IMG/VR virus record: IMGVR_UViG_2671180890_000001
Strand: one strand, 5' to 3'
Source of the DNA: a virus
Taxonomy: Duplodnaviria > Heunggongvirae > Uroviricota > Caudoviricetes
DNA length: 62,572 nt
In this document: one piece after another, positions 44,924 through 60,172 of the stretch
Position numbering within the stretch: position 1 is the first letter of the stretch
Layout: each line of letters starts with the position of its first letter
Notes under the pieces: generated by a model
Seen by the model: only the letters and a program-made list of their open reading frames with translations
Told to the model about the DNA's origin: nothing
Databases searched by the model: none
Program-made: the position numbers and the translations under genes

Positions 44924-47900
44924 ATGACATTAAACGATTTCTATGCGGATCGCTTTGGCAGCGATCCGTTCTCGCTAATTGAAGCAGCACGGGATGAACT
45001 AACCGAGCTGGCACAGATGGCTGGTATCAACTGGCCTGCCTGTTCCGACAACATCCAACTCAACCCTCGCGGGGGGGTTGAGCGTTACTCTTCATACAAT
45101 AAAACATCTCCAGAAGCTCTCGAAAAGAGCCTGAAAGGACGCGTAGAAATTTACTCCAGGCTGGAACACAGCAAAGGGATTGATTACCCGTTCATTAACT
45201 TCGTCCATAAAGGCAGCGATGCTGGCTCATGGAGCGGTTTCTCCTTCCTGTTTTCTGAATATCGCCGTGAGCAACAACGGAATAATGCGACCGTGGTCGC
45301 ACAACCGGAAGAAGAACGGGAAAGAATAGAACGTCAGGCCGAAGCACGTCGTCGCCGTGAAGAACAAAAACGAATTAATGACCTGAAAAACAACCAAATG
45401 GACCATGAACGTTTGCTGGGATGGCTGGCATTCCACAGCGCGTGGGAACATGCTCCGGCTGAAGACGGCTCATGGCCATATGCGATTAAAAAAGGTATTC
45501 GTGACGTTTTTAGTTCATGTGATGTGCGTCGCGTGACCAGTCACGACAGTGCGAAATGGAGCCGGGGGCCAACCACATATATGGCTATCCCTCTGGCTCA
45601 CCTGGACAGTCGTTATGATGGTCGTATTGTGGGTTGGCAGCGAATCGACAAACAAGGTGGGAAATACCAGACCAGCGCAGTAACCAGCGGCGATTTCGTC
45701 GGTGCCTGCTTTGTTATCGGTGAGCTGAAAGGGGCGCAAAACATCGCTGTTACAGAAGGTTTTGCTACTGGTGCATCCATCTGGCTTGCCACGAAAAAAG
45801 ATAAACGCTTTGACGCTGTGGTTGTCGCTGTATCCGCTAACAACATGGTTCATGTTGTGGAACAACTGGTAAACATGTACCCGGCGGCAAAAATCACCTG
45901 CGCACTGGATAATGACCGGAAATCTGCCACAGAAGGAAAAGGGAATACCGGCCTGCGGACTGGCTATGAAATCTTATCGAAATTCAACGATGTCCGCTGC
46001 GTCTATCCAACTTTTGAAGACGATCCGCAAATGGAGTGCAGTGACTTCAACGACCTGCACAAACTACGTGGACTTCGTGAAACAGCACGTCAACTGTTTG
46101 CAACAGCAAACCGCCTGAAAACCGGTACTGATTTGCTATCTCTGACGCTCAACCGCCTGAAGACAATTAAGCGGGATAACCGTCGTACTTTTGCCAAAGA
46201 GCTGCTGAGAGCGGTGGATATTGGCATGCTAACCTGTCCGGTTCCTAACAGTCCGTCAGATTTATTTAACATGTTCTGCATCGTTCTGCGTGAAATGGGA
46301 CTGGAAAATATCTATCGTGCTACGGTAAAAGACCACATTGCCCGTCGCCTGAATAAAAAGTGCCGTATTGCCCAGGCTCCGCGCTCTTTCAGCGAACGCA
46401 TAACTGATCCCAATAAACGACCTCAACATATCACCTATAAGCGTTTTGAAACTTCGGTAATGACCGATGATGTCCTGAAGTACGTGCAATCACTACAGGG
46501 GATAGTCATCGTCCGTGCTGGTATGGGTTCCGGCAAATCTACTGGATTGTTACGACCGTTAATGCATAGCTCAGAACGTGGTATCTCTGTTGCTCACCGT
46601 GTCTCCCTTATTGGTGGCCTGTGGGAAATGATGACAGAAGGAAAAGGTGTAAAAGCCGATATCCTGCACTATCAGGATCCTGGCTATCAGGAAATGGCTC
46701 CATACGCCAGTAAACTGACCATCTGCATAAACTCGATTGTTAAAAACTGCTGGCAACCGTTGATGCGCCAGCACGACTATTTTGGCTTTGACGAGGCCAC
46801 ACAAGGGCTACGTGCCGTTCTTTCCGGTCGGGCTATGGAAAACCCGGTGGCTGTATTCAATACGCTAATTGACGCGCTGGCCAGAACGGAACAACACCCA
46901 ATCATGGTGGATGCTGATGCGAACGATCTGCTGGTTGACCTGGCTGAACTGGCTATGAAACGCCGTGAAGAACTAGGTTTACCGGCATGGCTGCAGATCC
47001 ACGTAATTGAATTACCTGTTGATGTTCGCAACCGCGAAACAGGTGAGCCAATCCGGGTTTTTTATACAGAAAAAGATCGCATCATGACCGAGGTGGTGAA
47101 AGCTGTATCGGATGGCGAAAAAATCATGTTGGCCACCGACAGCTCCACCTTTGCAGAAGATGTGACAGCCACCCTGAGAATGCATTTTCCTGGTAAGAAA
47201 TTTCTGTGTGTAAACCAGAAAAACAAACCAGAGCCAGAAGTTGAAGCATTTACCAATCAACCGAAAAAGATGGTCAAAAAATACGACGGCCTGATTTATA
47301 GCCCGTCTATTTCATCCGGCGTGTCGATTGAGCAAAAACATTTTGACCGTCATTTCGGCATGTTCTGTGGTGAAGTTGTACCCAGCGACGCAGTGCAAAT
47401 GCTACGCCGCGACCGTACAGCAAAAGAATTTATTATCGGCTTTGATAAAGCTCGTGCAAAACGTGAAACTGACCCGCAAAAAATAGAACGAGCATTCGCC
47501 CAGGCATTGCTTGCTACTGCAGGTATGAACGGTGAACTGACGGATGTCGTTTTCGATGGCGACCGTATATCAATGGGGGTGGCCAATACCGACTTTACCA
47601 GGATGAAAATTAAAGCAGCCGCAATTGAAGCGTCTGCACGTAACGACTACGCCAGCAACATGATCTGCATCATGCACAGCGACGGTTATAAGATATCGCC
47701 GCTGGCCACCGATTATGCTGCAAATGATATCGGTAAAGATCTGCGTAAAGAAGCGCGGGATATTGTGTGGGAACAGACACTGGATCTGCATCTCAATACA
47801 GAAACTCCACAAGAATCAGAGCGTGAAGAACTGCTAAAAAAACGCGCGCTGACGCTTGAAGAACAGGCAAAACTTGTCCGCTGGGATATTGAGAACGAAC

Positions 47901-48919
47901 TGAAACTACCGGTTGAAGAAGGCACGCTGAAATTCTATTTCGATGGTGCTCGAGACAAAGTTCGCCGCTATGAAACAATGCTTTTAGATGAGGTAACAGC
48001 TCGTCGTTACGACCGGGAAGAAGCAGCCATCAATTTTACCTACGCATACCGTCAGGCGGGACAGTGGCAATATTTTGTAGTGACCGCAATGACTCGCGAG
48101 CAGGCTGATGATGTCTTTAAAACTAAATTCCCTGGAATAATCGACTACAAGGTAAAAGCTACTCCTACTGTTGAAGTCGGGGCGCGCGGTTTCTATGCGC
48201 TTAAATCAGCAACTCTCCGGCAGTACTTTATCGACTGCGGTATCAACCCTGAGACTATGACCGGCGAGGCGACTCAGGAGCGTCTCAAATTTGCTCGAGA
48301 TAACCTCATGACAGCCGAACGCCGTGACCTGTTGAATAACGTTCTGCACATTGGTGGTTTTATGACGCCAAAAGGGAAGCCTAAAGTGCCGGAAGCGTTG
48401 TTTAAAAACATTTGCGACTCTCTTGGCCTTAAAACAGGTAAACGTCGCGGCAGAGACGGCGATAAGCGTCCAACCTTGCGTTTTGTTGAGCCTGAATCAG
48501 CGGCATTTATGCTGGATATTCTTGCTCAGCGTCAGAAAGATGGCCTAACCCTGAAAACGCGTAAAGCCGAGAAGACTGCCATCGAAATGGATCGCGATTT
48601 GGATCTCAATATATATATGGATGATAAAACGCGATCCACAAACGAGCAGGTTCAAAACGCCCCTCATTCAGTAATTTCTGAGGCTTTGGCTGTGTTGCCA
48701 GTGGTTGTACCTGAGTCCTGGGCGATGAGTGCGCTTTCCGGTGAGGAGCTGGCCACTATGTCATCATGGTCATCAGCTAGCATAGCTATGACGTTTGCAT
48801 CTCTGTACCTCACAGAGTTCATGGATCACTTATCCAGCAATGAACTGCGGCGGTTACGTGAATACATTACCGGGAATAGCCCATGCAGCTACGAAGAGCA
48901 GGGCGCTTTCTATGGGTAA
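44924..48919 (+). CDS. repA: RepA multifunctional replication protein (primase plus helicase), N15 RepA-like
   Basis: 1331 aa; TOPRIM-like CALDNDRK region; Walker A GMGSGKST. Confidence 0.9.
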   Translation: MTLNDFYADRFGSDPFSLIEAARDELTELAQMAGINWPACSDNIQLNPRGGVERYSSYNKTSPEALEKSLKGRVEIYSRLEHSKGIDYPFINFVHKGSDAGSWSGFSFLFSEYRREQQRNNATVVAQPEEERERIERQAEARRRREEQKRINDLKNNQMDHERLLGWLAFHSAWEHAPAEDGSWPYAIKKGIRDVFSSCDVRRVTSHDSAKWSRGPTTYMAIPLAHLDSRYDGRIVGWQRIDKQGGKYQTSAVTSGDFVGACFVIGELKGAQNIAVTEGFATGASIWLATKKDKRFDAVVVAVSANNMVHVVEQLVNMYPAAKITCALDNDRKSATEGKGNTGLRTGYEILSKFNDVRCVYPTFEDDPQMECSDFNDLHKLRGLRETARQLFATANRLKTGTDLLSLTLNRLKTIKRDNRRTFAKELLRAVDIGMLTCPVPNSPSDLFNMFCIVLREMGLENIYRATVKDHIARRLNKKCRIAQAPRSFSERITDPNKRPQHITYKRFETSVMTDDVLKYVQSLQGIVIVRAGMGSGKSTGLLRPLMHSSERGISVAHRVSLIGGLWEMMTEGKGVKADILHYQDPGYQEMAPYASKLTICINSIVKNCWQPLMRQHDYFGFDEATQGLRAVLSGRAMENPVAVFNTLIDALARTEQHPIMVDADANDLLVDLAELAMKRREELGLPAWLQIHVIELPVDVRNRETGEPIRVFYTEKDRIMTEVVKAVSDGEKIMLATDSSTFAEDVTATLRMHFPGKKFLCVNQKNKPEPEVEAFTNQPKKMVKKYDGLIYSPSISSGVSIEQKHFDRHFGMFCGEVVPSDAVQMLRRDRTAKEFIIGFDKARAKRETDPQKIERAFAQALLATAGMNGELTDVVFDGDRISMGVANTDFTRMKIKAAAIEASARNDYASNMICIMHSDGYKISPLATDYAANDIGKDLRKEARDIVWEQTLDLHLNTETPQESEREELLKKRALTLEEQAKLVRWDIENELKLPVEEGTLKFYFDGARDKVRRYETMLLDEVTARRYDREEAAINFTYAYRQAGQWQYFVVTAMTREQADDVFKTKFPGIIDYKVKATPTVEVGARGFYALKSATLRQYFIDCGINPETMTGEATQERLKFARDNLMTAERRDLLNNVLHIGGFMTPKGKPKVPEALFKNICDSLGLKTGKRRGRDGDKRPTLRFVEPESAAFMLDILAQRQKDGLTLKTRKAEKTAIEMDRDLDLNIYMDDKTRSTNEQVQNAPHSVISEALAVLPVVVPESWAMSALSGEELATMSSWSSASIAMTFASLYLTEFMDHLSSNELRRLREYITGNSPCSYEEQGAFYG
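45286..45301. promoter_or_regulatory. sopC-like centromere palindrome, site 5, inside repA codons 121-127
   Basis: TGCGACCGTGGTCGCA encoding NATVVAQ. Confidence 0.6.
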
Positions 48920-49103
48920 TCAGTGGATATTATCTTTGTGTCTCTTGCTTTGTGTGTTCCAGCAATGGTTTTGGTTCATAGATCGAAAGTCTCACAAGGA
49001 AAACATGAAGGCCAGGAAGGCGATGTTTCGTGGTGAACAACTCGCGCAGACTTATCGTATGTGGAAACGTTTCTATCGTGATTTTTCGGTGAACGGGGAG
49101 TAA
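48912..49103 (+). CDS. Hypothetical small membrane protein
   Basis: Internal Met MGNQWILSLCLLLC; overlaps repA stop. Confidence 0.4.
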   Translation: MGNQWILSLCLLLCVFQQWFWFIDRKSHKENMKARKAMFRGEQLAQTYRMWKRFYRDFSVNGE

Positions 49104-49107
49104 AAAT

Positions 49108-49434
49108 ATGTCTACTACTGCATTTTTGGACAAACTTGATTACCGTCAGCTGCAGTTTTGCCGGGATGAATGCGATCGACGCATTAAGGCTATCCAGGAG
49201 GAAGAAAAAAAGGTTGCCTGGGCTGTAACAGATCGTGGCCTTATCTTTGGCTGGTTCCGTACGGAGGATTATCTGAAAGCAGTGGAATTATTGGCGCGTG
49301 AGGCTGCTGAGCGTTGGGAACGAGCCGACAAGGAAAACCCGGAGACGAAGTATGAACTGAATCTCTACATCGAGGGCAACCGTCTACCATTGTCAGAGTA
49401 TAACGCTTTGTTTGCTGATGGTGAGTGGGGTTAA
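49108..49434 (+). CDS. Hypothetical protein
   Basis: 108 aa ORF. Confidence 0.5.
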   Translation: MSTTAFLDKLDYRQLQFCRDECDRRIKAIQEEEKKVAWAVTDRGLIFGWFRTEDYLKAVELLAREAAERWERADKENPETKYELNLYIEGNRLPLSEYNALFADGEWG

Positions 49435-49832
49435 AAATGGCTGTTCAATCATACAAATACGAATCCCCTTTGGATAAGGGATACATTCGTATCAAGTTAA
49501 GTCGTTCTCAACATAAGGCTATTTTTAAGGTAAGGAAAATTCGCATATTGGATGCGTATGCGTATTACTACAACGGTGAAAATGTTGTTGTTGAACACTT
49601 TCTTGCACGATGGTTTGTAGCTCTGATTTTTGTCCCTCTCCTGTTAATTGGTACTTTTGTGGATGGTTTTCCTAGTACATGGCGGGAGATAAAGAAAGGC
49701 CTATTCCCGCGTAAGTACGGCAGATTTTCGCAAGATAGCTGGCGAGTTATACCTGGTAAACATTCTGTGGATGAGCAGCCGATTGTTGATTACTGGTTGA
49801 AGCGTATGGCTGATGCTAAAAAAGTTGATTGA
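49425..49832 (+). CDS. Hypothetical membrane protein
   Basis: 135 aa ORF with a central hydrophobic segment. Confidence 0.5.
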   Translation: MGLKMAVQSYKYESPLDKGYIRIKLSRSQHKAIFKVRKIRILDAYAYYYNGENVVVEHFLARWFVALIFVPLLLIGTFVDGFPSTWREIKKGLFPRKYGRFSQDSWRVIPGKHSVDEQPIVDYWLKRMADAKKVD

Positions 49833-49921
49833 ATAGTGATGACTGTTCAAGTTAAACCGTTCTCGGCATATTTTATTTAATGGAATAACATATTATTAAT
49901 CAAATAGGTTAAGTTAATATT

Positions 49922-50734
49922 ATGCGTAACAAAAAAACAACAGCTTTATTACTCTCTATCTTGTTATTATCTGGATGCACTTATCAATATGATAATAAGG
50001 CATCAACGGACGTTGAGTATAAATTCGAAAAAGAAAAAAGAGTACCTATCAACTCTGTTGGTGATTTTAGCAGCAAAATACTCACAGGTAAGGAATTTAA
50101 TAGAATTATTGCATCAAAGATAGATGATGGTTCATGGCGTGGATATGTCGTTCACTCATTAACATACGCGCCATACAACAACGTTTTAACATCTCAAGGT
50201 TTGTCTATCCCTAGAAGTATCACATACTCAGGAACATATCTTAACCGTGATTTTGTTGAGAATAGCGGTAGTGATAGCGTGATAACATCTCGAGATATGT
50301 CTGGATGGTATGGTTTTCATGTCGATTCCTCTGAAATAACAAAGCATGGAAGCTATGTTGGTGCTAATGCTTTTGGAATATCTGCTGATGTAGAAGTGTT
50401 AAATACTTTAGGTGCCGAAATTATCTTTGGTAGTACACAAATAAATGAAGGGAACCCTGAAACAATATGGGCAGATATTGATATAAAAGGACAAATACCA
50501 AAAGATGTTAATGTAAAAGACCTTAGAATTGAATATTTAGCAAAGATAAATGGGTTAAGCAGTAATCATATTGATATAACATCACCTACTATTTTTAACC
50601 CGTCAGATATGAGCCATAAAACTCAGGTTTTTATGGGTGAGTTATTAGCCGCGCGCCTAATAAATATTAAAACGGGAGAAATTTATCCAGTACAGCTAGA
50701 GTGGGTGTTCCGTTCGCGTGAGGCTTTCTTATAA
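49922..50734 (+). CDS. Moron lipoprotein, function unknown
   Basis: 270 aa; signal peptide with lipobox LLSGC; strongly AT-rich gene. Confidence 0.6.
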   Translation: MRNKKTTALLLSILLLSGCTYQYDNKASTDVEYKFEKEKRVPINSVGDFSSKILTGKEFNRIIASKIDDGSWRGYVVHSLTYAPYNNVLTSQGLSIPRSITYSGTYLNRDFVENSGSDSVITSRDMSGWYGFHVDSSEITKHGSYVGANAFGISADVEVLNTLGAEIIFGSTQINEGNPETIWADIDIKGQIPKDVNVKDLRIEYLAKINGLSSNHIDITSPTIFNPSDMSHKTQVFMGELLAARLINIKTGEIYPVQLEWVFRSREAFL

Positions 50735-50864
50735 CGGAACAATAACATTGTTCATGTTCTGATCGTTTGTTCAAGCAAACTATAAAAACACCTGTCCCCG
50801 TGACTGGTCACGGGGTAAAATGTCTTTGCAAATTATTGACGTGTGCGTCGTTTTGGAGGTAAAG

Positions 50865-50950
50865 TCACCTCGCTGCGGTAAATCCCGCAGTCGGGACTTC
50901 GCAATCCTGGCAAAACGAAGCGCACAACACGCGCCAGCGTGTTTTTTTGT
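50865..50950 (+). ncRNA. Candidate c4-like cis-antisense regulatory RNA upstream of icd-ant
   Basis: TTGACG and TAAAGT promoter-like hexamers, CTGCGG/CCGCAG stem-loop, ACACGC/GCGTGT terminator plus T7; two 8 nt blocks complementary to a site about 100 nt downstream. Confidence 0.4.
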
Positions 50951-51111
50951 GTGTATAGACCTGCGCATATCCGAATTATGGTGGCTCAGGTGGGGCTGAC
51001 TTCGGTCGGGCCGGTTTCTTCGTTTACCGGTATTGCGAACCCCGCCTGGGCTACCACCAATAAAGAGATTCGCAACTCTGGTGGTAGCACGACCAATAAA
51101 ACGGAGTGCAT

Positions 51112-51279
51112 ACCATGTTCAAATTCAAATTTGCGGCAGTCGTTCGCACAGACAAAAAGTCCCACATTCATCATCTTTCCACTATCGCGTCATCTGAACG
51201 GGAAGCTCGTCGCCAGTTCGCCAGCCGGTTTGTCCTGGTATTGTCTGCCCGTATTCCGGTGCGCGAGGTGGCTGCATGA
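51112..51279 (+). CDS. icd: Icd-like cell division inhibitor (55 aa)
   Basis: MFKFKFAAVVRTDKK ... SSEREARRQFAS pattern; not in the ORF track because under 60 aa; coordinates approximate. Confidence 0.45.
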   Translation, partial: TMFKFKFAAVVRTDKKSHIHHLSTIASSEREARRQFASRFVLVLSARIPVREVAA

Positions 51280-51509
51280 ATCAGGTAAAAATGAACACTG
51301 TTGGCCTGCTGGAATCGTTGGATGAACGTCTGGCTCAGGTCTATGCGCTCGTATCATCAGCCCATCGGACAGTCTCCAGTTGTGAGGCGTCGATTTACCT
51401 CTCAGAGGCTGGAAAACTTCTGCAGATTGCGTGTGAGTTAACGCATGAAGCACAGGGATATTCTGCGTCTCTCTCGTCGCACTTGCTGCGCGATAAGGAG
51501 GCTGAATGA
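51276..51509 (+). CDS. Hypothetical protein in the antirepressor operon
   Basis: 77 aa ORF, translationally coupled to the flanking genes. Confidence 0.5.
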   Translation: MNQVKMNTVGLLESLDERLAQVYALVSSAHRTVSSCEASIYLSEAGKLLQIACELTHEAQGYSASLSSHLLRDKEAE

Positions 51510-52288
51510 GCGCGTTAGCAGTCTTTTCCTTTCAGGAAGAGCATCAGGTTCGTGTAGTGATGATTAACGGTGAGCCGTGGTTTGTGGCTAAGGATGTATG
51601 TGATGCTTTAAGACTCGTTAATTCCCGGAAGGCGCTAATGTCTCTGGATGAGGATGAAAAGGGTGTAACTTTAAGTTACACCCCTGGCGGAGAGCAAAAG
51701 CTAAATATTATTTCAGAGTCAGGTCTATACACCCTGATCCTCCGCTGCCGTGACGCGGTGAAGCAAGGCACAACAGCTTGGCGGTTTCGCAAATGGGTAA
51801 CGAACGAAGTCTTGCCCTCTATTCGCAAAAATGGAGAGTACGTTTACATCGAGCCTGAGCCAATGCGAGCAGCGGAGCCGTTGAACTGGAGGCAGAAAGA
51901 GTATCTGCGAGGGCTGATTAACGATATAGCACAAAGTTTTCAGTACCGAAATGCCTGGATTAGCGGTGTATGGTTAGCTTTGCGTCGGGCGTGTCGTAAT
52001 CCATCCCCGAACCCCATAACGGTTGATGATTTGCCAGCAATTACGGCAGAACTGCGCCGGATTTTGACGGCTGCTGAGTCGGCATTGGGGAACATGCGCA
52101 CGTATGAACGAGAGTTGTTGCGTGATGTTGTTCGTGGGGGTAGGCGGAGTATGTCGTGTGGTGATTTACCCATCACCGATATTAACTCTGATCTGGAAAA
52201 GGCGTTACCCGCGCATTTTGAACTGGCAGTTCAAAAACTTGAGCAGTTATCCGCGCAGCTAAAGCCAGCAGAAATCACCAATAAATAG
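51506..52288 (+). CDS. Antirepressor with Bro-N domain
   Basis: 260 aa; N-terminal FSFQEEHQVRVVMINGEPWFVAKDVCDAL. Confidence 0.75.
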   Translation: MSALAVFSFQEEHQVRVVMINGEPWFVAKDVCDALRLVNSRKALMSLDEDEKGVTLSYTPGGEQKLNIISESGLYTLILRCRDAVKQGTTAWRFRKWVTNEVLPSIRKNGEYVYIEPEPMRAAEPLNWRQKEYLRGLINDIAQSFQYRNAWISGVWLALRRACRNPSPNPITVDDLPAITAELRRILTAAESALGNMRTYERELLRDVVRGGRRSMSCGDLPITDINSDLEKALPAHFELAVQKLEQLSAQLKPAEITNK

Positions 52289-52459
52289 GGTTGACCAGCC
52301 CGAATTTATGCCCTTCTTAGAGAAGGGAAGCCTCGCAGTCGGGGCGGTGATGTCTGTGGTTGCAGCCGCGTTTCCTCCGTTACTTCTGCCCTTTGCAGGG
52401 GGCAGGCGAGGTAGGTCACACAACAAGGCACCGTTAATTCGGTGCCTTTACTGTATGCT

Positions 52460-54355
52460 TTAACCGAAATATGTCAGCCATGCTAACTGCATTGCTGACA
52501 TGGGGCTGTTTGCACTGCCGGACCACGCATAATTCTGGCCATTATAATGAAACTCAACAACGTATGAGCCATCACCAATATTTCTCACCGGCTTAAATAC
52601 CGGCTTAGATACAGGCGAAGAAGGTGCAGGCGGTTGCTGTTCTTCTACGCTATCTTCCTCTTCCTCTTCCTCTATCTCAATTTCGTCGTCATCCAGATCG
52701 TCATCCTCTGATAATTCATCCGCCAGTTCAGGTATTGCTTCCAGTTCTTCTTCGTCAGGCATAACGATTTCTGGAGTATCTATTTTCAGTTGCCATTGTC
52801 CGTTTTCGCCAACAAATTGCCCCAGAGCATCAGCAGCAAATTCCAGGTATCGACTAATCATTGTTGGGCTAAATTTGAACGCTCTTAGAGTGCTGTTCGT
52901 GATTTTTATAGAGGGGTCCTGCTCTACCAGCTGCTTAACTGTGTTATGCAGACGAACCCCGGCATCTCCTCTGGCGAATCCAGGCATTTCGTCATCAAGC
53001 TGCTGCAATGCTTCCAGCCTGGTATTTTCGTTTCCAGTATTTGGCCTCCATGTCTTTGAGAAGTTGGCCAGCTTGAATTGCTTATAGTGTAATTGAGTGT
53101 TTTCATCGTCATGGCCTAAAATTTCCATAAAGAAAACATCTTCATCTACGTTTTTCCAACGAGGATCTACGCGGAAAAACATTTCATACGCAATACGGGC
53201 ATAAATAGCACGACTATCTTTATAAACACGGCGGTCATCTTTGAAAAATGATTTAACCCACGGGTTAAAAGCCTTTGCTAATATGGCATTAATACGTCCG
53301 TTTTCAGAGCGTGTGTCGTTATCTCCATAACCTTTAACGACATCATCAAAATCAGATGCTGCTGGGCATGAGCGAAGTACATTTATTAAATAAACAAATG
53401 TTTTTGCTTCGCATAATGTATATATTTTTCTGGTTATATCATCAGAAGTTCTTTTTTTAGCTTGGCCTAAAAAATCAACGGTATACTTACCAGAAACAGT
53501 AAATGTACCTTGATACATAATCTCAATCATTCGTCTTCCTGACAATGCAGCAAGTGCAAATGCCAAAGGAGCCATACCTGAACGAGTGTTTAGATTATTT
53601 AATGTAGCAGGGCTATTTATAATATCGTAAATAGCTTGCATATATTTAGGGTAATCAATGACCACCACGTTACGTTTCTTATTGTGCAGAACGTCCGCCC
53701 ATCGTTGCTGGATAGATGCACGTTCGGCAGGGCTTAGTTGAAGATGATAGAGAATCTCATGGTTAACTTTTAGCTGATTCAACTCCTCAAGTAAGGCAGA
53801 TCCTTGCTGTAGTAATTTATATAAATAATCGCGCTTATCTTTCCAGTTATCGCTAGTTAAATCAGAAATGGCGAATTGCCACTCTTTATATTTATTTGAT
53901 AATTTCAATAACTTATTATGACTTTTGTTATCGCCAATTCTGATATTAGATAAATCTTCTGATAGAGGGAGAATTAATTTTAATTTTGCCTGTAAAGCTG
54001 ACATTCTCTGGCGAATATCGGCAGCAGGTAGAGAAAGCCATGACAATAGCTCCTCATTATATAAAGGATACTTTTCAGATAGGCGATGTATATTTTTTTC
54101 AAAGCTATGATGAAGTTTATCATCAAACCGTTTTCTGGCCCTGCTCATATAGGCATTGAATGTGTTGGCTGTAATTCTTTTTTCTAATCCTTTCCCCCTA
54201 AACTTTCGCTTGTCATTAAATAATGCATTTTTAAATTTTAATGCAACAGCCTTTATTTTTTTTGTTTTCTCCCCTTGAGGACGGTCAGAGTTATCTATTG
54301 ACTCAACATCGCTAACAAGTGAGTTTATTAATTCACCGATTTTTACTTTGCTCAT
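52460..54355 (-). CDS. telN: Protelomerase TelN
   Basis: 631 aa; adjacent to the telomere palindrome; N15 TelN-like length and position. Confidence 0.9.
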   Translation of the reverse strand: MSKVKIGELINSLVSDVESIDNSDRPQGEKTKKIKAVALKFKNALFNDKRKFRGKGLEKRITANTFNAYMSRARKRFDDKLHHSFEKNIHRLSEKYPLYNEELLSWLSLPAADIRQRMSALQAKLKLILPLSEDLSNIRIGDNKSHNKLLKLSNKYKEWQFAISDLTSDNWKDKRDYLYKLLQQGSALLEELNQLKVNHEILYHLQLSPAERASIQQRWADVLHNKKRNVVVIDYPKYMQAIYDIINSPATLNNLNTRSGMAPLAFALAALSGRRMIEIMYQGTFTVSGKYTVDFLGQAKKRTSDDITRKIYTLCEAKTFVYLINVLRSCPAASDFDDVVKGYGDNDTRSENGRINAILAKAFNPWVKSFFKDDRRVYKDSRAIYARIAYEMFFRVDPRWKNVDEDVFFMEILGHDDENTQLHYKQFKLANFSKTWRPNTGNENTRLEALQQLDDEMPGFARGDAGVRLHNTVKQLVEQDPSIKITNSTLRAFKFSPTMISRYLEFAADALGQFVGENGQWQLKIDTPEIVMPDEEELEAIPELADELSEDDDLDDDEIEIEEEEEEDSVEEQQPPAPSSPVSKPVFKPVRNIGDGSYVVEFHYNGQNYAWSGSANSPMSAMQLAWLTYFG

Positions 54356-54525
54356 CTTTCCTCTCCTGATTATCCGCTCGGATTATCGTAACACAATTTG
54401 AGAATAAGATAACTAATAACGCGTTAACTTAGGCACAAACTAACAGAACACAACAACGGATAATAAATAAAAACACAATATCGGAACGTTAAAATTTGTT
54501 CCTTGACTTTGTTCTGAAAATCAGC

Positions 54526-54567
54526 ACATAATTCCCCATTATACGCACGTATAATGGGGAATTATGT
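54526..54567. repeat. Right hairpin telomere (telR) read-through: same 20 bp arms around a CA centre at 54546-54547
   Basis: ACATAATTCCCCATTATACG-CA-CGTATAATGGGGAATTATGT. Confidence 0.85.
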
Positions 54568-54737
54568 GCTGATTTTCAGAACAAAGTCAAGGAACAAATT
54601 TTAACGTTCCGATATTGTGTTTTTATTTATTATCCGTTGTTGTGTTCTGTTAGTTTGTGCCTAAGTTAACGCGTTATTAGTTATCTTATTCTCAAATTGT
54701 GTTACGATAATCCGAGCGGATAATCAGGAGAGGAAAG

Positions 54738-56633
54738 ATGAGCAAAGTAAAAATCGGTGAATTAATAAACTCACTTGTTAGCGATGTTGAGTCAATAGAT
54801 AACTCTGACCGTCCTCAAGGGGAGAAAACAAAAAAAATAAAGGCTGTTGCATTAAAATTTAAAAATGCATTATTTAATGACAAGCGAAAGTTTAGGGGGA
54901 AAGGATTAGAAAAAAGAATTACAGCCAACACATTCAATGCCTATATGAGCAGGGCCAGAAAACGGTTTGATGATAAACTTCATCATAGCTTTGAAAAAAA
55001 TATACATCGCCTATCTGAAAAGTATCCTTTATATAATGAGGAGCTATTGTCATGGCTTTCTCTACCTGCTGCCGATATTCGCCAGAGAATGTCAGCTTTA
55101 CAGGCAAAATTAAAATTAATTCTCCCTCTATCAGAAGATTTATCTAATATCAGAATTGGCGATAACAAAAGTCATAATAAGTTATTGAAATTATCAAATA
55201 AATATAAAGAGTGGCAATTCGCCATTTCTGATTTAACTAGCGATAACTGGAAAGATAAGCGCGATTATTTATATAAATTACTACAGCAAGGATCTGCCTT
55301 ACTTGAGGAGTTGAATCAGCTAAAAGTTAACCATGAGATTCTCTATCATCTTCAACTAAGCCCTGCCGAACGTGCATCTATCCAGCAACGATGGGCGGAC
55401 GTTCTGCACAATAAGAAACGTAACGTGGTGGTCATTGATTACCCTAAATATATGCAAGCTATTTACGATATTATAAATAGCCCTGCTACATTAAATAATC
55501 TAAACACTCGTTCAGGTATGGCTCCTTTGGCATTTGCACTTGCTGCATTGTCAGGAAGACGAATGATTGAGATTATGTATCAAGGTACATTTACTGTTTC
55601 TGGTAAGTATACCGTTGATTTTTTAGGCCAAGCTAAAAAAAGAACTTCTGATGATATAACCAGAAAAATATATACATTATGCGAAGCAAAAACATTTGTT
55701 TATTTAATAAATGTACTTCGCTCATGCCCAGCAGCATCTGATTTTGATGATGTCGTTAAAGGTTATGGAGATAACGACACACGCTCTGAAAACGGACGTA
55801 TTAATGCCATATTAGCAAAGGCTTTTAACCCGTGGGTTAAATCATTTTTCAAAGATGACCGCCGTGTTTATAAAGATAGTCGTGCTATTTATGCCCGTAT
55901 TGCGTATGAAATGTTTTTCCGCGTAGATCCTCGTTGGAAAAACGTAGATGAAGATGTTTTCTTTATGGAAATTTTAGGCCATGACGATGAAAACACTCAA
56001 TTACACTATAAGCAATTCAAGCTGGCCAACTTCTCAAAGACATGGAGGCCAAATACTGGAAACGAAAATACCAGGCTGGAAGCATTGCAGCAGCTTGATG
56101 ACGAAATGCCTGGATTCGCCAGAGGAGATGCCGGGGTTCGTCTGCATAACACAGTTAAGCAGCTGGTAGAGCAGGACCCCTCTATAAAAATCACGAACAG
56201 CACTCTAAGAGCGTTCAAATTTAGCCCAACAATGATTAGTCGATACCTGGAATTTGCTGCTGATGCTCTGGGGCAATTTGTTGGCGAAAACGGACAATGG
56301 CAACTGAAAATAGATACTCCAGAAATCGTTATGCCTGACGAAGAAGAACTGGAAGCAATACCTGAACTGGCGGATGAATTATCAGAGGATGACGATCTGG
56401 ATGACGACGAAATTGAGATAGAGGAAGAGGAAGAGGAAGATAGCGTAGAAGAACAGCAACCGCCTGCACCTTCTTCGCCTGTATCTAAGCCGGTATTTAA
56501 GCCGGTGAGAAATATTGGTGATGGCTCATACGTTGTTGAGTTTCATTATAATGGCCAGAATTATGCGTGGTCCGGCAGTGCAAACAGCCCCATGTCAGCA
56601 ATGCAGTTAGCATGGCTGACATATTTCGGTTAA
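54738..56633 (+). CDS. telN: Protelomerase TelN (fold-back copy)
   Basis: Identical 631 aa translation. Confidence 0.85.
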   Translation: MSKVKIGELINSLVSDVESIDNSDRPQGEKTKKIKAVALKFKNALFNDKRKFRGKGLEKRITANTFNAYMSRARKRFDDKLHHSFEKNIHRLSEKYPLYNEELLSWLSLPAADIRQRMSALQAKLKLILPLSEDLSNIRIGDNKSHNKLLKLSNKYKEWQFAISDLTSDNWKDKRDYLYKLLQQGSALLEELNQLKVNHEILYHLQLSPAERASIQQRWADVLHNKKRNVVVIDYPKYMQAIYDIINSPATLNNLNTRSGMAPLAFALAALSGRRMIEIMYQGTFTVSGKYTVDFLGQAKKRTSDDITRKIYTLCEAKTFVYLINVLRSCPAASDFDDVVKGYGDNDTRSENGRINAILAKAFNPWVKSFFKDDRRVYKDSRAIYARIAYEMFFRVDPRWKNVDEDVFFMEILGHDDENTQLHYKQFKLANFSKTWRPNTGNENTRLEALQQLDDEMPGFARGDAGVRLHNTVKQLVEQDPSIKITNSTLRAFKFSPTMISRYLEFAADALGQFVGENGQWQLKIDTPEIVMPDEEELEAIPELADELSEDDDLDDDEIEIEEEEEEDSVEEQQPPAPSSPVSKPVFKPVRNIGDGSYVVEFHYNGQNYAWSGSANSPMSAMQLAWLTYFG

Positions 56634-56804
56634 AGCATACAGTAAAGGCACCGAATTAACGGTGCCTTGTTGTGTGACCTACCTCGCCTGCCCCCTGCAA
56701 AGGGCAGAAGTAACGGAGGAAACGCGGCTGCAACCACAGACATCACCGCCCCGACTGCGAGGCTTCCCTTCTCTAAGAAGGGCATAAATTCGGGCTGGTC
56801 AACC

Positions 56805-57587
56805 CTATTTATTGGTGATTTCTGCTGGCTTTAGCTGCGCGGATAACTGCTCAAGTTTTTGAACTGCCAGTTCAAAATGCGCGGGTAACGCCTTTTCCAG
56901 ATCAGAGTTAATATCGGTGATGGGTAAATCACCACACGACATACTCCGCCTACCCCCACGAACAACATCACGCAACAACTCTCGTTCATACGTGCGCATG
57001 TTCCCCAATGCCGACTCAGCAGCCGTCAAAATCCGGCGCAGTTCTGCCGTAATTGCTGGCAAATCATCAACCGTTATGGGGTTCGGGGATGGATTACGAC
57101 ACGCCCGACGCAAAGCTAACCATACACCGCTAATCCAGGCATTTCGGTACTGAAAACTTTGTGCTATATCGTTAATCAGCCCTCGCAGATACTCTTTCTG
57201 CCTCCAGTTCAACGGCTCCGCTGCTCGCATTGGCTCAGGCTCGATGTAAACGTACTCTCCATTTTTGCGAATAGAGGGCAAGACTTCGTTCGTTACCCAT
57301 TTGCGAAACCGCCAAGCTGTTGTGCCTTGCTTCACCGCGTCACGGCAGCGGAGGATCAGGGTGTATAGACCTGACTCTGAAATAATATTTAGCTTTTGCT
57401 CTCCGCCAGGGGTGTAACTTAAAGTTACACCCTTTTCATCCTCATCCAGAGACATTAGCGCCTTCCGGGAATTAACGAGTCTTAAAGCATCACATACATC
57501 CTTAGCCACAAACCACGGCTCACCGTTAATCATCACTACACGAACCTGATGCTCTTCCTGAAAGGAAAAGACTGCTAACGCGCTCAT
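56805..57587 (-). CDS. Bro-N antirepressor (fold-back copy)
   Basis: Identical 260 aa translation. Confidence 0.7.
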   Translation of the reverse strand: MSALAVFSFQEEHQVRVVMINGEPWFVAKDVCDALRLVNSRKALMSLDEDEKGVTLSYTPGGEQKLNIISESGLYTLILRCRDAVKQGTTAWRFRKWVTNEVLPSIRKNGEYVYIEPEPMRAAEPLNWRQKEYLRGLINDIAQSFQYRNAWISGVWLALRRACRNPSPNPITVDDLPAITAELRRILTAAESALGNMRTYERELLRDVVRGGRRSMSCGDLPITDINSDLEKALPAHFELAVQKLEQLSAQLKPAEITNK

Positions 57588-57817
57588 TCAGCCTCCTTAT
57601 CGCGCAGCAAGTGCGACGAGAGAGACGCAGAATATCCCTGTGCTTCATGCGTTAACTCACACGCAATCTGCAGAAGTTTTCCAGCCTCTGAGAGGTAAAT
57701 CGACGCCTCACAACTGGAGACTGTCCGATGGGCTGATGATACGAGCGCATAGACCTGAGCCAGACGTTCATCCAACGATTCCAGCAGGCCAACAGTGTTC
57801 ATTTTTACCTGATTCAT
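57584..57817 (-). CDS. Hypothetical 77 aa protein (fold-back copy of 51276..51509)
   Basis: Identical translation. Confidence 0.45.
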   Translation of the reverse strand: MNQVKMNTVGLLESLDERLAQVYALVSSAHRTVSSCEASIYLSEAGKLLQIACELTHEAQGYSASLSSHLLRDKEAE

Positions 57818-58357
57818 GCAGCCACCTCGCGCACCGGAATACGGGCAGACAATACCAGGACAAACCGGCTGGCGAACTGGCGACGAGCTTCCCGTTCAGA
57901 TGACGCGATAGTGGAAAGATGATGAATGTGGGACTTTTTGTCTGTGCGAACGACTGCCGCAAATTTGAATTTGAACATGGTATGCACTCCGTTTTATTGG
58001 TCGTGCTACCACCAGAGTTGCGAATCTCTTTATTGGTGGTAGCCCAGGCGGGGTTCGCAATACCGGTAAACGAAGAAACCGGCCCGACCGAAGTCAGCCC
58101 CACCTGAGCCACCATAATTCGGATATGCGCAGGTCTATACACACAAAAAAACACGCTGGCGCGTGTTGTGCGCTTCGTTTTGCCAGGATTGCGAAGTCCC
58201 GACTGCGGATTTACCGCAGCGAGGTGACTTTACCTCCAAAACGACGCACACGTCAATAATTTGCAAAGACATTTTACCCCGTGACCAGTCACGGGGACAG
58301 GTGTTTTTATAGTTTGCTTGAACAAACGATCAGAACATGAACAATGTTATTGTTCCG

Positions 58358-59170
58358 TTATAAGAAAGCCTCACGCGAACGGAACACCCACTCTAGCTGT
58401 ACTGGATAAATTTCTCCCGTTTTAATATTTATTAGGCGCGCGGCTAATAACTCACCCATAAAAACCTGAGTTTTATGGCTCATATCTGACGGGTTAAAAA
58501 TAGTAGGTGATGTTATATCAATATGATTACTGCTTAACCCATTTATCTTTGCTAAATATTCAATTCTAAGGTCTTTTACATTAACATCTTTTGGTATTTG
58601 TCCTTTTATATCAATATCTGCCCATATTGTTTCAGGGTTCCCTTCATTTATTTGTGTACTACCAAAGATAATTTCGGCACCTAAAGTATTTAACACTTCT
58701 ACATCAGCAGATATTCCAAAAGCATTAGCACCAACATAGCTTCCATGCTTTGTTATTTCAGAGGAATCGACATGAAAACCATACCATCCAGACATATCTC
58801 GAGATGTTATCACGCTATCACTACCGCTATTCTCAACAAAATCACGGTTAAGATATGTTCCTGAGTATGTGATACTTCTAGGGATAGACAAACCTTGAGA
58901 TGTTAAAACGTTGTTGTATGGCGCGTATGTTAATGAGTGAACGACATATCCACGCCATGAACCATCATCTATCTTTGATGCAATAATTCTATTAAATTCC
59001 TTACCTGTGAGTATTTTGCTGCTAAAATCACCAACAGAGTTGATAGGTACTCTTTTTTCTTTTTCGAATTTATACTCAACGTCCGTTGATGCCTTATTAT
59101 CATATTGATAAGTGCATCCAGATAATAACAAGATAGAGAGTAATAAAGCTGTTGTTTTTTTGTTACGCAT
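58358..59170 (-). CDS. Moron lipoprotein (fold-back copy)
   Basis: Identical 270 aa translation. Confidence 0.55.
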   Translation of the reverse strand: MRNKKTTALLLSILLLSGCTYQYDNKASTDVEYKFEKEKRVPINSVGDFSSKILTGKEFNRIIASKIDDGSWRGYVVHSLTYAPYNNVLTSQGLSIPRSITYSGTYLNRDFVENSGSDSVITSRDMSGWYGFHVDSSEITKHGSYVGANAFGISADVEVLNTLGAEIIFGSTQINEGNPETIWADIDIKGQIPKDVNVKDLRIEYLAKINGLSSNHIDITSPTIFNPSDMSHKTQVFMGELLAARLINIKTGEIYPVQLEWVFRSREAFL

Positions 59171-59259
59171 AATATTAACTTAACCTATTTGATTAATAAT
59201 ATGTTATTCCATTAAATAAAATATGCCGAGAACGGTTTAACTTGAACAGTCATCACTAT

Positions 59260-59667
59260 TCAATCAACTTTTTTAGCATCAGCCATACGCTTCAACCAGT
59301 AATCAACAATCGGCTGCTCATCCACAGAATGTTTACCAGGTATAACTCGCCAGCTATCTTGCGAAAATCTGCCGTACTTACGCGGGAATAGGCCTTTCTT
59401 TATCTCCCGCCATGTACTAGGAAAACCATCCACAAAAGTACCAATTAACAGGAGAGGGACAAAAATCAGAGCTACAAACCATCGTGCAAGAAAGTGTTCA
59501 ACAACAACATTTTCACCGTTGTAGTAATACGCATACGCATCCAATATGCGAATTTTCCTTACCTTAAAAATAGCCTTATGTTGAGAACGACTTAACTTGA
59601 TACGAATGTATCCCTTATCCAAAGGGGATTCGTATTTGTATGATTGAACAGCCATTTTTAACCCCAC
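59260..59667 (-). CDS. Hypothetical membrane protein (fold-back copy of 49425..49832)
   Basis: Identical translation. Confidence 0.45.
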   Translation of the reverse strand: MGLKMAVQSYKYESPLDKGYIRIKLSRSQHKAIFKVRKIRILDAYAYYYNGENVVVEHFLARWFVALIFVPLLLIGTFVDGFPSTWREIKKGLFPRKYGRFSQDSWRVIPGKHSVDEQPIVDYWLKRMADAKKVD

Positions 59668-59984
59668 TCACCATCAGCAAACAAAGCGTTATACTCTGAC
59701 AATGGTAGACGGTTGCCCTCGATGTAGAGATTCAGTTCATACTTCGTCTCCGGGTTTTCCTTGTCGGCTCGTTCCCAACGCTCAGCAGCCTCACGCGCCA
59801 ATAATTCCACTGCTTTCAGATAATCCTCCGTACGGAACCAGCCAAAGATAAGGCCACGATCTGTTACAGCCCAGGCAACCTTTTTTTCTTCCTCCTGGAT
59901 AGCCTTAATGCGTCGATCGCATTCATCCCGGCAAAACTGCAGCTGACGGTAATCAAGTTTGTCCAAAAATGCAGTAGTAGACAT
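59658..59984 (-). CDS. Hypothetical protein (fold-back copy of 49108..49434)
   Basis: Identical translation. Confidence 0.45.
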   Translation of the reverse strand: MSTTAFLDKLDYRQLQFCRDECDRRIKAIQEEEKKVAWAVTDRGLIFGWFRTEDYLKAVELLAREAAERWERADKENPETKYELNLYIEGNRLPLSEYNALFADGEWG

Positions 59985-60172
59985 ATTTTTACTCCCCGTT
60001 CACCGAAAAATCACGATAGAAACGTTTCCACATACGATAAGTCTGCGCGAGTTGTTCACCACGAAACATCGCCTTCCTGGCCTTCATGTTTTCCTTGTGA
60101 GACTTTCGATCTATGAACCAAAACCATTGCTGGAACACACAAAGCAAGAGACACAAAGATAATATCCACTGA

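Follow-up and report, generated by a model that had tools for sequence, protein, structure and literature searches.

The DNA analyzed here, hereafter the window, is a 62,572-nt stretch of an N15-like telomere phage-plasmid. Its + strand carries a promoter, a leader RNA, a C4-type RNA gene, and icd in that order, followed by two further genes of the operon; telN (52460-54355, minus strand) lies directly downstream, and the locus is 100% identical to Escherichia albertii plasmids. The features are as follows.

50836-50865, + strand: sigma70-like promoter, homologue of N15 Pa and P4 PLE (consensus scan)
50872-50947, + strand: IsrK/seqA-like leader RNA (Rfam isrK RF01394, 52.8 bits)
50898-50905, + strand: a1, TTCGCAAT, exact 8-nt complement of a' ATTGCGAA (51032-51039)
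50913-50920, + strand: b1, AAACGAAG, exact 8-nt complement of b' CTTCGTTT (51018-51025)
50926-50950, + strand: intrinsic terminator of the leader (terminator scan)
50974-51061, + strand: C4-type antisense RNA gene, homologue of N15 CA, P4 CI, and P1 c4 (Rfam C4 RF01695)
51018-51025, + strand: b', CUUCGUUU, located in the loop (12 nt) of C4 hairpin 2 (cmscan structure line)
51032-51039, + strand: a', AUUGCGAA, in the single-stranded joint from hairpin 2 to the basal stem (cmscan structure line)
51069-51075, + strand: a2, TTCGCAA, complementary to a' (read from the sequence)
51080-51088, + strand: segment X, GGTGGTAGC, fully complementary to GCTACCACC (51050-51058) at the 3' end of the C4 basal stem
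51099-51106, + strand: b2, AAACGGAG, complementary to b' with one G-U pair
51115-51279, + strand: icd-like gene, 54 aa (NCBIfam NF033153 phage_ICD_like, 67 bits)
51276-51509, + strand: homologue of N15 gp31, 77 aa (63% identical)
51506-52288, + strand: Bro-N antirepressor-type protein, 260 aa, homologue of N15 gp30 (Pfam Bro-N, 77.8 bits)
56805-58220, - strand: mirror copy of the whole locus within a fold-back duplication (second C4 match, inverted repeat arms, indel map)

The promoter reads TTGACG-18-TAAAGT, with the -35 element TTGACG at 50836-50841, an 18-nt spacer, and the -10 element TAAAGT at 50860-50865, and aligned relatives keep a -35 TTGAC and a TAnnGT -10 at the equivalent position. 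Transcription probably begins near 50872, where the match to the isrK model starts. The leader folds into a first hairpin (50872-50891) with compensatory changes in 5/7 pairs (RNAalifold, 21 leaders), a second hairpin (50892-50909) with a1 in its loop, a single-stranded b1, and then the intrinsic terminator, whose stem AACACGC/GCGTGTT (50926-50943) is followed by T7 to 50950. This terminator corresponds to the N15 "putative rho-independent terminator" annotated at 2685-2707 of L002, which, from the GenBank annotation, we take to be Ta in both position and role; its 26-mer recurs unchanged in N15 and in 35 IMG/VR loci. Promoter and terminator bracket some 76-79 nt, so that an earlier note on this DNA, which placed a promoter-to-terminator unit of about 85 nt upstream of the Icd-like open reading frame (ORF), was right about its presence. 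The isrK score of the leader (52.8 bits) is marginal against the gathering score of 50, and the orthologous leaders of N15 and P4 reach 62.4 and 60.8 bits; against c4-a1b1 (RF03163, "a1, b1 targets of C4"), the leader gives a weak 24.8 bits, below the gathering score of 46.7. Like IsrK and seqA, it has its own promoter, an intrinsic terminator, a C4-type RNA immediately downstream, and a middle part complementary to C4.

The C4 match is strong (82.3 bits against a gathering score of 45) and full length, spanning model positions 1-87 of 87. It has the C4 form of a long basal stem, two hairpins, and a 3' ...ACCACC tail, and, as in the C4 family, it lies on the same strand as, and in the leader of, the operon that it would control, upstream of an icd-like first ORF. 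From the annotated P1 c4 misc_RNA ends, set against the Rfam match, homology predicts a mature RNA spanning approximately 50980-51058, and the sequence is compatible with a processed stable RNA of about 77 nt with an RNase P 5' end and a CCA-like 3' end. The earlier note had instead taken the upstream unit to be c4-like and proposed a covariance model search for c4. That search does find C4, at 50974-51061 and not in the flagged unit, where a permissive covariance scan of 50780-51180 returned only isrK and a weak c4-a1b1. With C4 downstream and isrK/c4-a1b1 upstream, regulator and target (or decoy) had therefore been exchanged, and the site read as a mere target on the transcript is inside the C4 RNA gene, its two blocks being b' and a'.

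The complementarity itself is exact. Two 8-nt blocks pair 50898-50905 with 51032-51039 and 50913-50920 with 51018-51025, as had been noticed (CTTCGCAATCCTGGCAAAACGAAG is found at 50897-50920), although the downstream site extends over 51018-51039 rather than ~51026..51049, a displacement of about 8-10 nt. In 20,000 dinucleotide shuffles of the leader, the chance of at least two exact 8-mers complementary to the C4 segment was 0.0018, and chance complementarity was rejected on this frequency. The arrangement had also been called cis-antisense. All complementary blocks, however, lie on the + strand, 100-200 nt apart, within one transcription unit, and scanning for promoters turned up a single promoter-like site on the minus strand, at 52477-52450 before telN, and none within 50836-52288. 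P1, P4, and N15 likewise carry all of their elements on the same strand in a single transcription unit.

A second, translationally relevant target pair, a2 (51069-51075) and b2 (51099-51106), had escaped the earlier note. A small hairpin (51064-51079, stem AGAG/CTCT) holds a2 in its loop; the stem is present in 20-21/22 sequences, yet invariant, and the longest cognate a'/a2 run is 7 nt. The b2 segment overlaps the icd Shine-Dalgarno sequence GGAG (51103-51106), and the b'/b2 duplex has an energy of -8.4 kcal/mol over 8 bp (RNAduplex), with only 5 consecutive Watson-Crick pairs and one G-U in the window. The a' and b' segments are accordingly complementary both to upstream a1/b1 and to downstream a2/b2, with b2 over the ribosome-binding site, as in the C4 family. 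Between a2 and b2 lies segment X, whose duplexes with the C4 basal stem reach -16 to -20 kcal/mol in all loci scored and whose pairing is compensated in P4; in P1 and L015, it was compared by eye. Segment X is also able to pair with the icd start region, and the minimum free energy (MFE) fold of the window shows such pairing. We do not claim an RBS-sequestering hairpin from it, because the RNAalifold consensus for 22 sequences is weak (-3.05 kcal/mol, 1 compensatory pair).

The 27 related loci hold 8 a' alleles and 11 b' alleles in 19 combinations. Exact-run length discriminates poorly among b alleles because many share UCGUUU, and duplex energies with permutation were used instead. Mean energies of cognate versus non-cognate pairings were -6.9 versus -3.6 kcal/mol for a'/a1, -9.0 versus -3.8 kcal/mol for a'/a2, -11.2 versus -7.0 kcal/mol for b'/b1, and -9.5 versus -6.1 kcal/mol for b'/b2 (permutation p<=2e-4 in each case). 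The blocks thus co-vary between relatives in all four pairings, as they do between P1 and P7, and conservation of the complementarity in related phages, whose absence the earlier note had named as a refutation, is borne out. The elements, their structures, and their complementarities are, like this co-variation, direct results of the analysis.

The three downstream ORFs are as first described: an Icd-like protein, a 77-aa protein, and a Bro-N protein, with ATGA stop/start overlaps joining icd to the gp31 homologue and the gp31 homologue to the gp30 homologue. The analogy drawn earlier with a secondary immunity region of N15 also proved sound, N15 immA being syntenic and its proteins 94%, 63%, and 74% identical to the Icd-like, 77-aa, and Bro-N proteins, respectively; Icd is further 50% identical to the P4 ORF downstream of CI RNA. 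The 77-aa protein, which matches phrog_6301 and phrog_10889 and of which no homologue was found in PY54, is probably AntB, and the Bro-N protein, which matches PHROG anti-repressor Ant families, is probably AntA. Neither Icd nor the 77-aa protein had a meaningful Pfam match; NCBIfam and PHROGs supplied the matches.

Judged by sequence, the closest relative of the locus is N15 immA. This anti-immunity region, as Ravin, Svarchevsky and Deho are said to have described it in 1999, consists of the Pa promoter, a leader, CA RNA, icd, and antA/antB. According to the title of Ravin et al. 1999, as cited in PMC4488713, a small processed RNA controls the N15 antirepressor. Both loci lie directly beside telN (N15 genes 32/31/30 are syntenic), both have an isrK-like leader with terminator, a C4-type RNA, icd, gp31, and gp30 in that order, and their DNA is 79% identical over 712 nt; isrK and then C4 matches are found, in that order, in N15, YDC107_1, and P4 as well. 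They differ in the upstream neighbor, which is gp33-36 in N15 and a lipoprotein-like ORF in the window, and in the blocks themselves, a' being GUUGAGAA and b' CUUCUUGU in N15 versus AUUGCGAA and CUUCGUUU in the window. The a1, b1, a2, and b2 segments carry changes that match these differences, so the two elements would be predicted to be heteroimmune for the antirepressor switch.

The operon architecture, as far as it can be read from the sequence, matches that of P1 immI and of the P4 immunity region. In P1 and P7, immI reportedly comprises the c4 antisense RNA, icd, and ant1/ant2, a description that goes back to Citron and Schuster in 1990. The P1 record annotates P1c4/P2c4, a1, b1, c4, a2, b2, icd, and ant1/2, which is the order of the window with almost the same distances (7 nt separate a1 from b1 in each, and a2 and b2 stand 22 nt apart in P1 versus 23 nt in the window). 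P1 also has a C4 family match (68.8 bits), and its leader, which includes a terminator-like hairpin, scores 51 bits with c4-a1b1 and a weak 35 bits with isrK, whereas the window leader falls below the c4-a1b1 threshold (24.8 versus 46.7 bits). The shared logic, according to the notes in the P1 record, is that icd is repressed at translation and ant expression is coupled to it; the earlier note had proposed such a c4/icd/ant scheme, and both the RNA-controlled antirepressor operon and the role of the complementarity as the functional one agree with it. P1 differs in that its promoters are under a C1 operator (Oc4) and in that its antirepressor is Ant1/Ant2 rather than the pair of gp31 homologue and Bro-N protein, and a tblastn search with the window Icd found no match to P1 Icd at E<=1e-3.

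The P4 region consists of PLE, seqA, CI RNA (seqB), seqC, and the first ORF, with isrK (60.8 bits) and then C4 (74.9 bits) both above the gathering score. Its a1/b1 precede a terminator-like hairpin, its a2/b2 come after C4 with b2 on the Shine-Dalgarno sequence (UUCACAGGAGG), its following ORF is Icd-like and 50% identical, and complementarity to segment X is kept with compensatory changes. Unlike the window locus, the P4 module is the primary immunity, and the genes under its control serve replication and are not an antirepressor (PMC4825925); its leader-to-C4 spacer is 107 nt versus 26 nt, its b allele is another one, and its a' AUUCUCAC, common to some N15-like loci, is absent from the window. 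A further comparison, resting on the published description and on the Rfam isrK model match to the window leader, is with isrK-orf45-anrP of Gifsy-1 in Salmonella (Hershko-Shalev et al. 2016). There, too, a promoter-to-terminator small RNA is made, the middle part of IsrK is complementary to a downstream element, and the read-through transcript carries the processed C4-like RNA STnc1160 and an antirepressor-like gene, IsrK being considered a structural homologue of seqA with STnc1160 downstream (PMC4825925). The IsrK-C4 pair has likewise been equated with P4 seqA/CI and said to be in use by P1, P7, and N15 (PMC3632133). Gifsy-1 differs in its emphasis on a short IsrK that activates translation in trans (PMC4825925), in a first ORF, orf45, reported as a coupling ORF and not Icd, and in its host element, a lambdoid prophage rather than a telomere phage-plasmid.

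We therefore read the locus as an N15-type C4 RNA anti-immunity switch, that is, the immA-type secondary-immunity operon of an N15-like telomere phage-plasmid, and assign this reading a probability of about 0.88. The feature is genuine and of an ordinary, already known kind, a textbook-type phage RNA immunity module; in N15-, P1-, and P4-type phages, the switch is a well-described small RNA that holds an antirepressor operon silent. Promoter use, terminator read-through, RNA processing, and repression in the window are modeled on these homologues, as follows. Transcription from the promoter (50836-50865) would yield a leader (50872-50947) with a1 in a hairpin loop, b1 single stranded, and an intrinsic terminator, and read-through transcripts would carry the C4-type RNA (50974-51061), to be excised as a stable RNA of approximately 79 nt, by analogy with P1 c4 and P4 CI through RNase P cleavage at the base of the tRNA-acceptor-like stem ending in ACCACC. 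The b' (hairpin 2 loop) and a' (joint) segments of C4 would pair with b2 and a2 just downstream on the read-through mRNA, and because b' pairing would cover the icd Shine-Dalgarno sequence, icd would go untranslated; the gp31 homologue and the Bro-N antirepressor would then be silenced through lost translational coupling and probably through polarity as well. The a and b blocks would be the specificity (heteroimmunity) determinants. Pairing of a'/b' with leader a1/b1 may, in addition, either reinforce termination at the leader terminator or allow the abundant short leader RNA to titrate C4, like IsrK in Gifsy-1. N15 CA RNA acts by reinforcing termination at the leader terminator. The literature on relatives is divided on the effect, CI and CA RNA promoting termination in P4 and N15 and short IsrK activating translation in Gifsy-1 (PMC4825925), and we infer the direction of regulation as well as the outcome of a1/b1 pairing.

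The model of the earlier note, updated, would assign the main riboregulatory role in trans over icd and ant to the short RNA made between promoter and terminator (50872-50947), with the downstream region of read-through transcripts, or free C4 RNA, as its partner. We regard this as possible though doubtful. The unit is complete from promoter to terminator and matches the isrK model, its a1/b1 co-vary with a'/b', and the short IsrK of Gifsy-1, made likewise, binds the read-through transcript in trans and raises orf45/anrP translation more than 100-fold (PMC4825925); P4-like prophages, moreover, seem from TraDIS data to need their IsrK-like elements (PMC3632133). By analogy with IsrK, however, such an RNA would be an activator or anti-antisense and not a c4-like repressor, and activation, the sign to be expected if it is regulatory, is the opposite of what had been proposed. 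The covariance models also do not class the leader as C4-like, it is the C4/CI/CA RNA that genetics has defined as the immunity factor in P1, P4, and N15 (P1 annotation; PMC3632133), and a decoy role for the leader would complement the C4 switch without replacing it.

Purely cis action, in which a1/b1 and a'/b' would fold the read-through transcript into an inactive form with no diffusible RNA, accords with the presence of every site on one transcript and with "structure A" of isrK-orf45 in Gifsy-1, where compensatory mutations demonstrated that the IsrK middle part pairs with the downstream region of its own molecule (PMC4825925). We nevertheless consider it very improbable: the MFE fold of 50866-51130 leaves C4 independent and very stable with a1/b1 unpaired with a'/b', the three-site co-variation, which includes a2/b2 over the Shine-Dalgarno sequence, exceeds the needs of a two-partner fold, and the descriptions of C4 in P1, CI in P4, and CA in N15 have these RNAs processed and acting in trans (P1 annotation; PMC3632133). 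That the region encodes a protein repressor ("cA", gp32, or "ash family protein"; approximately ORF 50939-51325), with the blocks incidental, is hardly credible, even though N15 GenBank records annotate here a cA CDS, "secondary immunity repressor," and gp32, and RefSeq has a partial "ash family protein" pseudogene. The full-length covariance model match with its conserved RNA structure, and variation that compensates RNA-RNA pairing and not codons, led us to reject it; the equivalent P4 "cI protein" ORF, moreover, spans the stretch now read as CI RNA (C4 family) and the Icd-like ORF.

Within the C4 switch, a two-RNA toggle with a combinatorial specificity code can be put forward tentatively, and we think it rather unlikely. 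The terminated IsrK/seqA-like leader RNA, being abundant, would serve as a C4 decoy, so that expression of the antirepressor operon would be set by the leader:C4 ratio, and the conserved segment X could be a third, processing-sensitive switch element. If this is true, freely reassorting a/b alleles would define cross-immunity groups among N15-like phage-plasmids and might even link N15-like plasmids to P4-like satellites, since the P4 a' recurs in several N15-like loci.

For discovery, the locus is of small importance; Rfam recognizes the module outright. Neither RNA, though, is annotated in the genome records of the widespread Escherichia and Klebsiella telomere phage-plasmids, which wrongly present the C4 gene as a protein, "cA," or as a pseudogene of an "ash family protein," and the table of a/b alleles offers a simple predictor of which N15-like plasmids would be heteroimmune for the antirepressor switch.

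As a separate observation, the locus occurs a second time in the window, in a 7.6-kb fold-back around the hairpin telomere, which warns against reading the window as a true linear map of the replicon. This fold-back may stem from read-through of the hairpin telomere, from a replication intermediate, or from a chimeric assembly. In the mirror copy, C4 lies at 58032-58119 (the second Rfam C4 match), and the leader is without one C of the CCC at 50884-50886 (indel map).

The complementarity between the leader and the C4 RNA of this operon is real and functionally meaningful, and the copy in the window is orthologous to N15 immA, from which it differs in its specificity alleles. The gene picture of the earlier note (Icd-like, 77-aa, and Bro-N ORFs) was borne out by the sequence of 50500-52700 and an ORF listing.

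Open reading frames of the operon and its 3' neighbour
ATG 51115 to 51279, + strand: Icd-like ORF, 54 aa (ORF listing; NCBIfam)
51276-51509, + strand: 77-aa ORF, gp31 homologue (ORF listing; PHROGs)
51506-52288, + strand: Bro-N protein, 260 aa (Pfam Bro-N, 77.8 bits)
52460-54355, minus strand: protelomerase-like ORF (telN), 631 aa, 3' of the Bro-N ORF

At 67 bits against a cut-off of 25, NCBIfam assigned the first ORF to "host cell division inhibitor Icd-like," anti-repressor families in PHROGs claim the 77-aa and Bro-N ORFs, and ATGA stop/start overlaps chain all three genes. Among phages, tblastn matches to the gp31 homologue were confined to the N15/phiKO2 group (14 records), and PY54 gave no tblastn match to it. 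Since PY54 has been reported to carry antA and icd and to lack antB (PMC4488713), gp31 probably corresponds to AntB, and gp30, the Bro-N protein, to AntA. Directly upstream of the promoter, which resembles the N15 operon promoter Pa, lies a 270-aa ORF (49922-50734, + strand) with a lipoprotein-type signal (MRNKKTTALLLSILLLSGC...), possibly acquired as cargo or a moron; in N15, this place is occupied by gp33-36.

A consensus scan of the upstream region identified a single + strand promoter-like site (TTGACG-18-TAAAGT, 50836-50865), followed by an intrinsic terminator (stem at 50926-50943, then T7). The string CTTCGCAATCCTGGCAAAACGAAG, singled out by the earlier note, was located at 50897-50920. 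When all complementary k-mers were listed, TTCGCAAT (50898-50905) was an exact 8-mer complement of ATTGCGAA (51032-51039), as was AAACGAAG (50913-50920) of CTTCGTTT (51018-51025). Among 20,000 shuffles that kept the dinucleotides of the leader, the frequency of at least two such blocks was 0.0018. Both exact 8-mers of the two-block complementarity first described are therefore present, with downstream coordinates (~51026-51049) that had been set ~8-10 nt too high.

The roles of the two RNAs must, however, be reassigned. An Rfam scan of the whole window returned three matches at gathering thresholds. The unit at 50865-50950, originally taken for the c4-like RNA, is instead a leader carrying the sites a1 and b1: it matched isrK (RF01394; 50872-50947, 52.8 bits; gathering score, 50) and, below threshold, RF03163, "a1, b1 targets of C4 antisense RNA" (50859-50913, 24.8 bits, E = 3e-4; gathering score, 46.7), and gave no C4 match even in a permissive Rfam scan of 50780-51180. 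In an RNAalifold alignment of 21 leaders, including those of P4 and P1, hairpin 1 showed compensatory changes in 5 of its 7 pairs, a1 lay in the loop of hairpin 2, and the terminator was conserved. The C4 antisense RNA (RF01695; gathering score, 45) was matched at full length at 50974-51061 (+ strand, 82.3 bits), and the downstream blocks, proposed as a target site, fall inside it as its exposed segments. In the C4 alignment, CUUCGUUU lies within the 12-nt loop of the second hairpin (b') and AUUGCGAA in the single-stranded joint ahead of the 3' strand of the basal stem (a'). Because these are the positions named b' and a' in P1 c4, the supposed target is the active, pairing part of the C4 RNA. 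The original c4/icd/ant-type immunity reading thus named the right kind of system, with the C4 RNA being the downstream element. Alignment with the annotated ends of P1 c4 predicts a mature C4 RNA of ~50980-51058, with the 3' end ...GCUACCACC.

Two further sites lie downstream of the C4 RNA. Site a2 (TTCGCAA, 51069-75) is looped out by a short AGAG/CTCT stem. Site b2 (AAACGGAG, 51099-106) pairs with b' through base pairs that include one G-U, and it spans the icd Shine-Dalgarno sequence GGAG (51103-06), with the ATG 8 nt beyond. Between them, segment X (GGUGGUAGC, 51080-88) could pair without mismatch with the final 9 nt of the predicted mature C4 RNA (51050-58; 3' end of the basal stem). This pairing scored -16 to -20 kcal/mol in all N15-like loci scored by script, was kept by compensation in P4 (GGCGAUAGC / GCUAUCGCC), and, by eye, was compensated in the related locus L015 (GGUGACGA / UCGUCACC) and nearly so in P1. 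X may be a structural switch; its alternative partner in the minimum free energy fold of 50866-51130 is the icd start region (51107-51117), with weak formal support for that hairpin.

Conservation of the complementarity was assessed from 35 IMG/VR loci retrieved with the leader terminator 26-mer, of which 27 were aligned after duplicates and truncated copies were dropped and from which a', b', and the leader and downstream segments were cut out by anchors. Across these loci, 8 a' alleles were combined with 11 b' alleles in 19 ways, and changes in a' or b' were all mirrored in a1/a2 or b1/b2.

Alleles in N15 and in a related locus
N15: a' GUUGAGAA, a1 UCUCAAC, a2 UUCUCAAC; b' CUUCUUGU, b1 ACAAGAAG, b2 UACAAGA
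L021: a' UUGUCAC, a1 GUGACAA, a2 GUGACAA; b' CUGAUUGUG, b1 CACAAUCAG, b2 CAAUCAG

Cognate versus non-cognate pairing (RNAduplex, kcal/mol)
a'/a1: -6.9 versus -3.6
a'/a2: -9.0 versus -3.8
b'/b1: -11.2 versus -7.0
b'/b2: -9.5 versus -6.1

For each pairing, the observed cognate mean was reached by 0 of 5,000 permutations of unique pairs (p<=2e-4, phylogeny ignored), such that the complementarity, whose absence from related phages would have counted against the earlier proposal, co-varies across the 27 loci. That a and b alleles reassort independently speaks against simple common descent as the explanation. Seven of the N15-like phage-plasmid loci (L004, L005, L008, L014, L016, L028, and L038) share with P4 the CI a' allele AUUCUCAC, together with its a1/a2 partners GUGAGAA. 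The N15-like loci sharing this allele carry different b alleles (the P4 C4 RNA is at 1026-1113 of the P4 locus L039), and its recurrence is a hint that satellites and telomere phages exchange modules or partly cross-talk.

The system is already well known (P1 c4, P4 CI/seqA, N15 CA, and Gifsy-1 IsrK), and existing covariance models recognize the window copy. In P4, a 50%-identical tblastn match to the window Icd lies inside the old "cI gene product" ORF, in a stretch matching isrK (60.8 bits) and then C4 (74.9 bits). P4 seqA has GUGAGAA and UUCACAGG ahead of a terminator-like hairpin, the CI RNA has CCUGUGAA in a loop and AUUCUCAC in the joint, and the downstream sites are GUGAGAAC and, on the Shine-Dalgarno sequence, UUCACAGGAGG. 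The P1 record gives the order promoters P2c4/P1c4, a1, b1, c4 (77 nt), a2, b2 ("repression of icd ant translation"), icd, and ant1/ant2. Its spacing agrees with that of the window, with 7 nt between a1 and b1 in each and 22 nt (P1) versus 23 nt (window) between a2 and b2. The P1 leader, including a terminator-like hairpin, matched c4-a1b1 (51 bits) and isrK (35 bits).

The N15 counterpart comprises genes 32/31/30, adjoining telN (gene 29), with protein identities to the window of 94% (Icd), 63% (gp31), and 74% (gp30). Matches to isrK and then C4 were found at equivalent positions in N15 (62.4 and 78.8 bits) and YDC107_1 (54.9 and 71.8 bits), and the N15 record annotates a "putative rho-independent terminator" at the place of the leader terminator. 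The N15 CA RNA reportedly promotes premature termination of the Pa transcript. Phage megablast matches were N15 (79% identity over 712 nt), YDC107_1 (90%), and PhiR46_1 (99% over the first half). The 1601-nt query was 100% identical to the Escherichia albertii plasmids pEA8_3 (NZ_CP117561.1) and NZ_CP126913.1, among 135 matching plasmid records, mainly from Klebsiella and Escherichia, and matched in 66 complete E. coli genomes. Public records treat the C4 RNA gene as protein-coding: N15 records carry "cA" and gp32 CDSs (L001, 413-715; L002, 2748-3038), the label in the older of these records, U63086, being "cA, secondary immunity repressor," and RefSeq has a partial "ash family protein" pseudogene (L042, NZ_LT906558.1, 640-762). 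Both the leader RNA and the C4 RNA are unannotated in those N15 and RefSeq records.

Directly seen here are a promoter-like site, a leader that carries a1/b1 and a terminator, a C4 fold that exposes a'/b', and a pair of sites, a2/b2, of which b2 lies on the Shine-Dalgarno sequence. The ATGA coupling of the genes and the three-site co-variation were seen as well. By homology, the leader terminator would stop most transcripts, and processed C4 RNA would arise from those that read through. Pairing of the C4 RNA with a2/b2 would then block icd translation, and this block would silence the downstream antirepressor genes via coupling or polarity. Pairing at a1/b1 may raise termination, as in the view held for P4 and N15, or the short leader may titrate the C4 RNA and so lead to activation of expression, as in that for Gifsy-1; the two effects may also coexist. 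In Gifsy-1, some isrK transcripts run past the terminator, IsrK base-pairs through its middle part with sequence farther downstream, short IsrK in trans activates orf45/anrP translation, and a processed RNA downstream of isrK, STnc1160, may act like P4 CI (PMC4825925).

A second, identical C4 copy was matched by Rfam on the minus strand (58032-58119) because the locus is duplicated by a fold-back. The arms of a perfect inverted repeat (46940-54545 and 54548-62151, 7.6 kb; centre, 54546/54547) differ only by two 1-nt indels, at ~47836 and ~50884, the latter being CCC versus CC in leader hairpin 1. At the centre of the repeat, just upstream of telN, is a tel-like palindrome (...CCCCATTATACG CA CGTATAATGGGG...), so that repA(3')-immA-telN is duplicated in inverted orientation; 62152-62572 is the reverse complement of 12332-12754. 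In pEA8_3, by contrast, there is no mirror image and telN is succeeded by sopA, as it is in related records. The fold-back looks like the product of read-through at the hairpin telomere, of a dimer junction, or of chimeric assembly. Since many public N15-like assemblies, both IMG/VR contigs and plasmid records, hold double inverted copies or are about twice unit length, the same problem seems widespread for hairpin-ended plasmids. Examples are L036 (1903+ / 7141-), L018 and L023 on one 92,470-nt contig, and L010 and L011 on one 56,122-nt contig, and some plasmid records match the query in "2 places."
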